A program made the translations under genes and the position numbers. From NCBI RefSeq assembly GCF_988242995.1, contig NZ_OZ547043.1: 64,000 bases of DNA; one strand, given 5' to 3'. Position 1 is the stretch's first letter; each line of letters begins with the position of its first letter. The notes under the pieces were generated by a model that ran no database searches, was not told the origin of the DNA, and saw nothing but the letters and a program-made list of their open reading frames with translations. Shown one piece after another: positions 42,175 to 57,067 of the stretch.

Positions 42175-43398
42175 ATGTCAATTGACTTTACCCCAGGTAT
42201 GATAAATACATATCACGGCGATATTTATAACCGCACAACAGATACCGACAATGTTAAAACACCAGACACACCGATGTGGCCTTGTGATAATCAGGAAGAA
42301 CAGCAACCCATTAATTTTTCATTGTCTGAAGAAGGATATAACGCTGAACAATTTGATTTAGCGCAACAACAACTCCAACAAATTAATGCGTGCCACACGA
42401 ACACTACATATACAAATGCAGACTACTCAAAAGTTGTGGCTCAACTTGTAAGTCTTATTACTAACATTGAAACGATAAGTTCGACACCACTTACGCAACA
42501 GACACAATCAATACTTAATCAGATTAATAACATTAGATACGAAAAAAACAAAAGTGCTGAATGTCGAATCATTGTTGTCGCTAATCCTAAACCCGACAAG
42601 GCAATCATAACTAAAATTAGCGTAGAAGAGGGAATACCAGTAAGATTCAGTGTCCAAACCATGTTTTCAGATACTAATTTTATTGCTGAACAACAGGCTG
42701 ACTTACCTACTAATATAAAAGATATTCAAAACCTGTATCAAAAAATGACGAAGTTATATATTGAGCACAGTGAAAATAAAAACAGGATGAAAGTCTTTGC
42801 CGGAACCAACTTTATTGATTTCAATATGACAGGACAGAACCTGTCCGGGTTCGTTCTAACCTTGTCAAGGTTTTATTTCGAAGATCTACTTAATATAAAT
42901 TTCACTGACGCAAATTTAGGTGACACTATTTTTTCACATAAAGAACACCCTACCCCAAAATTATATAAAGACGAACAATATCTTGACAAACAAATCGAAG
43001 GTTTATTTTCAACATTATTAACCATTAATGACAACTTTTTACGAGCAAAAGCGGAAATTGCTTCGACAATAATTAAATTCTTAGAGGCCAGGATAACCAA
43101 TATTTCATACAATGACATATTAAAATATCAGCAAGAATTCAAAAAACAATGTTATAAGCAAGTTAAAGCCTTTACGACACTCTCCCGATACAATAAAATT
43201 CAAACATGGGCAGAAATGTCTGAATATCAATTCGAAGTATTTCAATACGAGACGCTTAACCCAAAAAAAATGTCATACGCACCTTATTTAAAGAGATCGC
43301 TACCTGATGAAAAAACTATAAATTATGGGGTGGAAATAGAAACACCATCTGGCAAAAGAATTCGCTTATCAAATCATTACCAGAATATAATCCCATAA
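42175..43398 (+). CDS. yhiS: uncharacterized protein YhiS, apparently intact (407 aa)
   Basis: Position between the ars region and slp; AT-rich, Asn/Ile-rich soluble protein. Confidence 0.6.
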
Positions 43399-43642
43399 TA
43401 TGAACATTAGCACTTTATAATCATTGAATAAAAATAGATTTTATGTACCTTTAAAAAAAGGCTATTTTATGGGGCGATGGATACTCATGTCACGCCCCAA
43501 AATTAACAGAATTAAACTAAACAGAAGGGATATAAACATCAGACAGGTTTACGTTACTATCAGGCATATCGCCTCAGAATCAGATGAAAACTATAAAGAA
43601 ATATCTATTATGGTTTTAATATTTGTTGATAAGGATAGTAAC

Positions 43643-55442: not shown

Positions 55443-55696
55443 CGTAATATCCTCAACTATAAAGTGAAAGAGCCGTCACGAATCAATTTCGACACTGAGG
55501 TTATAACCTGGTTTTCTGTATATGTCATGTTGATGGAAAATATCAAAATCAGATATTTTTATTTCAATACAATGAGTTACAGATGCATCAGATACTGTAA
55601 TTAGGAAATTTTTATTAAATCGACTGCATTCTTAGACGCGTTTTTGGCATAGATTGATAGCAGGGGATTTTCTTCTTAATTTTATAGGGTGGTTCT

Positions 55697-56269
55697 ATGT
55701 TATATATAGATAAGGCAACAATTTTGAAGTTTGATCTGGAGATGCTGAAAAAGCATCGCAGAGCAATCCAGTTTATTGCCGTGTTGCTGTTTATCGTCGG
55801 GTTGCTGTGTATCAGTTTCCCGTTCGTCTCTGGCGATATTTTAAGCACAGTAGTGGGTGCATTATTAATCTGCTCGGGCATTGCGCTTATTGTCGGGTTA
55901 TTCAGCAACCGCAGTCATAATTTCTGGCCGGTATTATCCGGTTTCCTCGTCGCAGTCGCCTATTTATTGATCGGCTATTTCTTCATCCGCGCACCGGAGC
56001 TGGGCATTTTTGCCATTGCGGCATTTATTGCCGGTTTGTTCTGTGTTGCAGGGGTTATTCGCCTGATGAGTTGGTATCGTCAGCGTTCAATGAAAGGCAG
56101 CTGGCTACAGCTCGTTATTGGTGTGCTGGATATCGTCATTGCATGGATATTCCTTGGTGCAACGCCGATGGTGTCTGTAACTTTGGTTTCCACACTGGTG
56201 GGTATTGAACTGATATTTAGCGCCGCCAGCCTGTTCAGCTTCGCCAGTTTGTTCGTTAAGCAGCAATAA
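55697..56269 (+). CDS. hdeD: acid-resistance membrane protein HdeD
   Basis: 190 aa polytopic membrane protein divergent from hdeAB. Confidence 0.9.
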   Translation: MLYIDKATILKFDLEMLKKHRRAIQFIAVLLFIVGLLCISFPFVSGDILSTVVGALLICSGIALIVGLFSNRSHNFWPVLSGFLVAVAYLLIGYFFIRAPELGIFAIAAFIAGLFCVAGVIRLMSWYRQRSMKGSWLQLVIGVLDIVIAWIFLGATPMVSVTLVSTLVGIELIFSAASLFSFASLFVKQQ

Positions 56270-56286
56270 TTATTCCTGTTGTCACC

Positions 56287-56320
56287 CGGATCATAGTCAC
56301 TTGATGTGACTATGATCCGA
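56287..56320 (+). terminator. strong hairpin after hdeD (putative terminator)
   Basis: ggatcatagtcac-ttga-tgtgactatgatcc; no strong U-tract. Confidence 0.4.
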
Positions 56321-57067
56321 TTAATACTCTCTCCGCTACACAGCGTTGTAGATCAATTGCGCACTATCATTGAAATAATTACCTGCTGATGATTATTTCA
56401 ACCTACTGAATTTCATCTAATTTTTTTCATTCCATGGCAAATTAGCCATTTCAAACATTATCATGGCTGATATTTTCCGTAGTCAGGTTTAATGTTTTAA
56501 AAGTGCTGTGGGAAAGTGAACAAAGAGTTCCGTAAGCGTTGATGCTATGGGCGGTTAAATAAGTAATCCGGGTTCATTTTTTTGCAACAGGCGTTGATTA
56601 CATTGCATAAATATCCGTGTCTCCAGACGCTATATAAAAACCTGAAGACATGAATGCGTTATTTACTCAGGTAATTTCAATGCGTTAAAAGAAAGCTGGC
56701 AATCCAATTGCCAGCTTAAGTCGAAACAAGGAGACTCGATATTTAAATCGGATTACATTTTAACTTTAGTAATATTCTTCAGAGATCACAAACTGGTTAT
56801 TGATAACTTATTCTTGGGCAGTAATCCGCAAACGTTAACTTTTTGTTTACCATTTACAAATTGATAACAACCAGGAATCTTACTTAGGATCAATATATGG
56901 AGTGCGTGATGGATAAATCTGAAGTATTGATTAGTGTTAATAGACGTATTAGTTCACGAAGGGCAAAGTTCTTATAGGCGTTTACTATATTGAACAACGA
57001 TTCGGACAAGGATGTAAATAATGAAAAGGATGACATGTTCGAAACGATAACGGCTAAGGAGCAAGTT

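Follow-up and report, generated by a model that had tools for sequence, protein, structure and literature searches.

The long spacer between hdeD and gadE in the acid fitness island of E. coli raises the question of whether it is purely a control region or also encodes a gene, the antisense small RNA ArrS, and, if so, exactly where. The window analysed here, a stretch of 64,000 nucleotides from contig NZ_OZ547043.1 (RefSeq assembly GCF_988242995.1), contains this island, with yhiD, hdeB, and hdeA on the minus strand followed by hdeD, gadE, mdtE, and mdtF on the plus strand. A sequence-only reading of the window had described a long AT-rich spacer of about 0.8 kb between hdeD and gadE, and both points hold: taken from the gene ends, the interval is exactly 56270..57067, or 798 bp, with a GC content of 35.7% against 49.4% for the whole window. 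About 8% of the 798-bp windows in this stretch are equally AT-rich, so the spacer is AT-rich, yet not the extreme of the window. Further AT-rich stretches are located at about 21140-22000 and 42660-43460; their AT content is at least that of the spacer, with a minimum of 30.8% GC near position 42661.

The spacer was found in 5413 of 5426 complete E. coli genomes, with a median of one copy per genome and on chromosomes only. Relative to K-12 MG1655 (NC_000913.3), it is 98% identical, with 16 SNPs and no indels; published K-12 positions could therefore be carried to the window by arithmetic. The SNPs form clusters at 56273-56433 and 56849-56861, away from the P3 block, arrS, and P1. The published 5′ ends of gadE transcripts (work of Ma 2004 and of Sayed and Foster 2009, reviewed in PMC3708157) are at -21, -124, -324/-317, and -566 relative to gadE, and all of them were placed on the window (Table 1). 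The interval has thus been correctly recognised as the known multi-promoter region of gadE: by its sequence, it corresponds to the 798-bp K-12 P1-P3 'sensory integration' region. With a probability of about 0.93, we read the interval as the hdeD-gadE control region of the E. coli acid fitness island carrying one discrete minus-strand gene, arrS. Since everything central to this reading has been published, the finding is already known; the region and ArrS have both been described, and the conceptually new content is none.

Table 1. Features of the hdeD-gadE spacer and its flanks, in window coordinates; conservation is the per-position identity to the window across the aligned Escherichia lineages.
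Feature	Position	Strand	Details
hdeD ORF	55697..56269	+	gene call, confirmed by the annotation of a RefSeq strain with an identical spacer
hdeD-gadE intergenic region	56270..57067	.	798 bp; 35.7% GC; published gadE multi-promoter 'sensory integration' region
Whole spacer	56270-57067		conservation 0.77
hdeD downstream hairpin	56287..56319	+	perfect 14-bp stem, 5-nt loop, 18 nt past the hdeD stop, without U-tract
27-aa ORF	56306	+	stops/frameshifts in other Escherichia lineages
P3 promoter block, conserved	56430..56520	+	conservation 0.92
Putative P3 -35 and -10	56467-56472; 56490-56495	+	CTGATA and TAATGT, hexamers read by eye
gadE T3 start (-566)	56502	+	arithmetic from PMC3708157
Variable segment of T3 leader	56596..56686	.	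conservation 0.37
arrS (70-nt sRNA ArrS)	56687..56756	-	70/70 identity to MG1655 b4704; conservation 0.97, in the top 2.3% of the spacer's 70-nt windows
ArrS intrinsic terminator	56687..56717	-	11-bp stem 56717..56693, 3-nt UGG loop, then UCUUUU
gadE T2 (-324) / T4 (-317) ends	56744 / 56751	+	arithmetic from PMC3708157
ArrS 5′ seed GUAAUCCG (nt 1-8)	56749..56756	-	trans pairing with the cfa 5′ UTR
Putative arrS promoter	56763..56791	-	-35 TTGTGA 56791..56786, 17-nt spacer, -10 TAAAGT 56768..56763; read by eye
35-aa ORF	56786	-	stops/frameshifts in other Escherichia lineages
P1 region and gadE leader, conserved	56880..57067	+	conservation 0.955
63-aa ORF	56890	-	stops/frameshifts in other Escherichia lineages
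26-aa ORF MECVMDKSEVLISVNRRISSRRAKFL	56897..56977	+	in the T2/T3 leader; AGGA 7 nt 5′ of the ATG
gadE T1 start (-124)	56944	+	arithmetic from PMC3708157
30-aa ORF	56972	-	stops/frameshifts in other Escherichia lineages
GGA motifs in gadE leader	57004, 57010, 57028, 57058	+	sequence
gadE T start (-21)	57047	+	arithmetic from PMC3708157
gadE Shine-Dalgarno AAGGAG	57056-57061	+	sequence
gadE	57068..57595	+	gene call, confirmed by the annotation of a RefSeq strain with an identical spacer

In MG1655, arrS (b4704) is annotated on the minus strand at NC_000913.3 3657985..3658054, and the window carries the same 70 nt at the same position and on the same strand, with the same terminator and 5′ seed and no difference within the gene. 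None of the 16 spacer SNPs falls in arrS or in its promoter as read by eye. The gene spans -381..-312 relative to the gadE ATG, downstream of the T3 start (-566) and upstream of the T1 start (-124). The sequence-only reading had named ArrS as possible somewhere in the spacer and proposed mapping against the published gadE starts and arrS coordinates; this mapping, when run, placed the 5′ ends and put arrS on the minus strand at 56687..56756, where it faces the gadE T3 leader, and the alignment inspected for the lack of an arrS homologue contains one at 70/70. Judged by its sequence, the element is ArrS itself and not a mere look-alike. Exact arrS coordinates are now given for a non-K-12 strain, and they point to a practical annotation gap: PGAP leaves arrS unannotated at its match in the non-K-12 RefSeq genomes among those listed, and an Rfam scan at E <= 1 gave no family match within 56270-57067 (a chance miRNA match and ES205 lie outside the spacer).

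Putative transcription signals are present at both ends of the gene. A single terminator-like site occurs in 56200-57150, and it coincides with the annotated 3′ end of ArrS on the minus strand; the fold of the 70-mer has an energy of -20.2 kcal/mol and z = -3.84. On the plus-strand side the ArrS hairpin is followed by AAGTCG, without a T run, and transcription from T3 should therefore read through. The putative arrS promoter is at the correct distance to the annotated 5′ end and has a C at -13 (56769), a feature characteristic of sigma-S promoters. It was missed by a sigma-70 consensus scan (9-of-12) of the spacer region, which found 5 sites versus 3.7 expected and is uninformative. As read from these signals, arrS is a discrete minus-strand transcription unit with its own putative promoter and a predicted Rho-independent terminator. 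In K-12, arrS is reported to depend on sigma-S and GadE for its induction at low pH or in stationary phase (PMC6755755).

Species-representative genomes were scanned with the GadE protein; besides two contaminated assemblies, the scan yielded six Escherichia lineages independent of each other, among them E. albertii, E. whittamii, and two further Escherichia species. The spacers were aligned, and per-position identity to the window was calculated. The two contaminated assemblies were set aside. In 'Flavobacterium paronense' (L009, NZ_JAUFQN010000010.1), the hdeD-gadE sequence has 98% nucleotide identity with scattered 1-nt indels, and in 'Streptomyces sp. DH24' (L010, NZ_JARVKW010000110.1), GadE residues 106-175 match at 100%; the gadE DNA of both closely matches that of E. 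coli and looks like contamination of the assemblies.

Conservation falls from 0.97 to 0.37 directly past the 3′ end of arrS, forming a sharp boundary there. Four lineages, namely E. albertii, E. whittamii, Escherichia sp. E1V33, and strain E69, either lack the adjacent segment of about 90 bp (56596-56686) or have nothing that aligns with it, and their spacers are 720-745 bp long versus 798 bp here. On the other side of the gene, the -35 hexamer is invariant among the lineages and the C at -13 is kept, while in L006 and L008 the -10 hexamer reads TAGAAT or TAAAAT, both variants being nearer the consensus. The 5′ seed GUAAUCCG is unchanged in all lineages. Within E. coli, the arrS sequence is the same in 4095 of 5411 carrier genomes and 95-99% identical in the others. 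Altogether, arrS with its putative promoter and its terminator is conserved throughout the genus Escherichia.

Such conservation could also originate from the sense strand, if the 70-nt block were a part of the T3 leader that is structured or bound by protein, or were the P2 promoter, and the antisense RNA were incidental. The block does overlap the P2/P4 promoter area and the T2/T4 starts, and deletion of arrS leaves acid survival unaffected (PMC6755755). Nevertheless, the U-tail of the hairpin is found on the minus strand only, the drop in conservation occurs at the ArrS 3′ end, where no plus-strand feature is located, and the trans targets of ArrS have been validated through compensatory mutation (PMC6755755). 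The pattern of substitutions in the stem is also relevant. No stem pair was altered on both sides in the lineage alignment, and, since ArrS is nearly invariant, this covariation test is uninformative; three one-sided substitutions, however, all give G.U on the ArrS strand and would give an A.C mismatch on the plus strand. These changes, wobble-compatible on the minus strand only, are a weak signal that points to constraint on the antisense RNA. We find a sense-strand origin of the block scarcely credible and retain arrS as the conserved gene.

The present analysis establishes the location, identity, anatomy, and conservation of arrS, while its transcription, regulators, and targets are taken from the K-12 literature. 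The T3 leader is the only one to which ArrS is complementary over its full length; the T2 and T4 ends fall within the stretch covered by ArrS and face its nt 13 and nt 6, respectively. In the scheme drawn from this literature, gadE-mdtEF would be transcribed from the spacer at several 5′ ends (T3, T2/T4, T1, and T) and silenced by H-NS/StpA, and the sigma-S-type promoter and the strand-specific terminator would define the 70-nt minus-strand ArrS. The ArrS-T3 duplex would be processed with the involvement of RNase III into a shorter, stabler T2-like gadE mRNA, resulting in more GadE, and GadE together with sigma-S would induce arrS, forming a positive loop. In PMC6755755 and PMC6872547, ArrS overexpression shifts T3 to the stabler T2-like gadE mRNA and increases acid resistance, with RNase III implicated, and a study of the entire transcriptome detected an RNase III cleavage site within ArrS in vivo. 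That ArrS directs RNase III to cleave T3 has been deduced rather than observed even in the literature; according to PMC6872547, there is no direct evidence for it.

In trans, ArrS together with Hfq would pair through its 5′ seed with the cfa 5′ UTR and mask an RNase E site, and it would repress fepA via the terminator loop. ArrS is bound to Hfq and belongs to the sRNA-like class in RIL-seq data, with partners enriched for acid-response genes. Activation of cfa through RNase E site masking has been published, and the pairing was proven by the C7G/G101C compensatory mutation test (PMC6755755), and the terminator loop was required for fepA repression (PMC11979758). Our duplex prediction puts the seed on cfa at about -102..-95, in agreement with the published C7G/G101C site; compared with shuffled sequences, the energy of this duplex is unexceptional (p about 0.13), though at the published site.

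ArrS could consequently be viewed as mainly an Hfq-dependent trans sRNA acting on cfa, fepA, and other acid-response mRNAs, with the cis effect on gadE being minor. The RIL-seq class and partners, the proven cfa pairing, the repression of fepA, and the invariant seed all favour such a role, as does the unproven status of direct cis cleavage. On the other hand, the in vivo RNase III site in ArrS is consistent with a cis duplex, and overexpressed ArrS raises the level of T2 gadE mRNA (PMC6755755, PMC6872547). We consider a predominantly trans role possible, although we would not bet on it, and it refines the main explanation, in which arrS is a discrete gene antisense to the gadE leader, and does not exclude it.

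The closest analogues of ArrS are GadY and RydC. GadY, encoded in the gadX-gadW spacer of the same island, is like ArrS a cis-antisense RNA of the acid response that is sRNA-like in RIL-seq, has acid-response partners there, and binds Hfq, although its locus and sequence are different. Pairing of GadY with the sense transcript leads to processing and to more of a gad regulator mRNA; GadY pairs with the 3′ UTR/intergenic part of gadXW, whereas ArrS pairs with the 5′ leader from one of several promoters. RydC, an sRNA that activates cfa, resembles ArrS in its trans action, since the ArrS site in the long cfa 5′ UTR overlaps that of RydC and the same RNase E site is protected (PMC6755755). The two RNAs have unrelated sequences and different loci, and deletion of rydC has an acid phenotype, whereas deletion of arrS has none (PMC6755755).

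The sequence-only reading had also named H-NS silencing and several activator inputs, and these statements are supported by the literature. According to PMC3708157, the region has more than 10 regulators in addition to H-NS/StpA silencing, and IPOD-HR revealed dense H-NS/StpA-dependent occupancy across hdeAB-yhiD, hdeD, arrS, and gadEF (PMC12266141). The 64% AT content of the spacer is, for its part, consistent with H-NS/StpA silencing.

Like arrS, the P3 promoter block and the P1 region with the gadE leader are conserved. The P3 block contains nested inverted repeats at 56449-56501 on the plus strand (TTTCAAACATTA/TAATGTTTTAAA and ATTAGCCAT/ATGGCTGAT); the repeats extend over both P3 hexamers read by eye and could be regulator sites. 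CsrA binds the gadE leader with a KD of 138 nM (PMC11210196). We infer that the GGA motifs of the leader are CsrA sites.

The spacer was also scanned with TTAGGATTTTGTTATTTAAA, used as the GAD-box consensus. The scan gave 9 hits with up to 8 mismatches versus 7.6 ± 2.8 in shuffled sequences, which is nothing beyond chance, and a GadE site in the spacer or a GadE input to arrS is therefore not assignable from sequence. The best GAD-box-like match in the island is TTAGGAAATTTTTATTAAAT at 55601-55620 on the plus strand, with 5 mismatches, in the hdeA-hdeD divergent promoter. GadE occupancy of this promoter has been published (PMC4918353).

The spacer also contains five small ORFs, which had been regarded as probably noncoding. 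This view stands: four of them are broken in other Escherichia lineages, and the fifth, the 26-aa ORF, is intact but evolves neutrally. A comparison of all five with NCBIfam and Pfam returned sub-threshold noise only, and the MG1655 annotation has no CDS in the spacer. One could hypothesise that the 26-aa ORF is a translated upstream ORF which modulates gadE translation or stability from T2/T3 transcripts in an evgL-evgA-like manner, evgL being a leader peptide known in the same regulatory cascade (PMC11210196). Its ATG and stop codon are intact in 9 of 9 Escherichia sequences, and its ATG is preceded by AGGA. However, its distinct substitutions, 3 of them synonymous and 12 non-synonymous, are just what a neutral expectation of 0.20 predicts, and the T1 start lies inside the ORF, which has neither a match in NCBIfam or Pfam nor an annotation in MG1655. 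Being located in a 95%-conserved promoter block, the ORF is expected to be intact by chance, and its stop codon is 90 nt upstream of the gadE ATG, which provides no coupling geometry. A literature search for a gadE uORF yielded unrelated papers only ('Gade' is also an author name). Translation of this ORF with an effect on gadE appears very unlikely to us, and the ORF is probably noncoding.

At the other end of the spacer, a hairpin lies just downstream of hdeD. Its 84-nt context folds with an energy of -31 kcal/mol and z = -7.35, and in the alignment of 7 lineages pairing holds in 92.9% of the cells. Two base pairs show clean compensatory changes (CG<->GC and CG<->AU), and one lineage retains two pairs by G.U, which is valid on the plus strand only. 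The hairpin is probably a 3′-UTR element, acting in 3′-end protection or as an atypical terminator; the support is moderate, because the compensatory changes probably represent one or two evolutionary events. An additional function in the spacer, residing in this hairpin as a conserved 3′-UTR element, in the segment 56596-56686, and/or in translation of the 26-aa ORF, seems unlikely and, if true, would be of modest interest. The segment 56596-56686, if functional, might alter the interaction of the T3 leader with ArrS.

Downstream of gadE, the Rfam match to ES205 (57713-57784, plus strand; 105 bits, E = 1.3e-18) is located within MG1655 gadF (b4718), an sRNA derived from the gadE 3′ UTR. Antisense to GadF and to the gadE-mdtE spacer lies a 98-aa ORF (57596-57892, minus strand), possibly a spurious call; at its position, there is no annotation in MG1655, and PGAP reports a 'hypothetical protein' in strain WP8-S18-ESBL-07.
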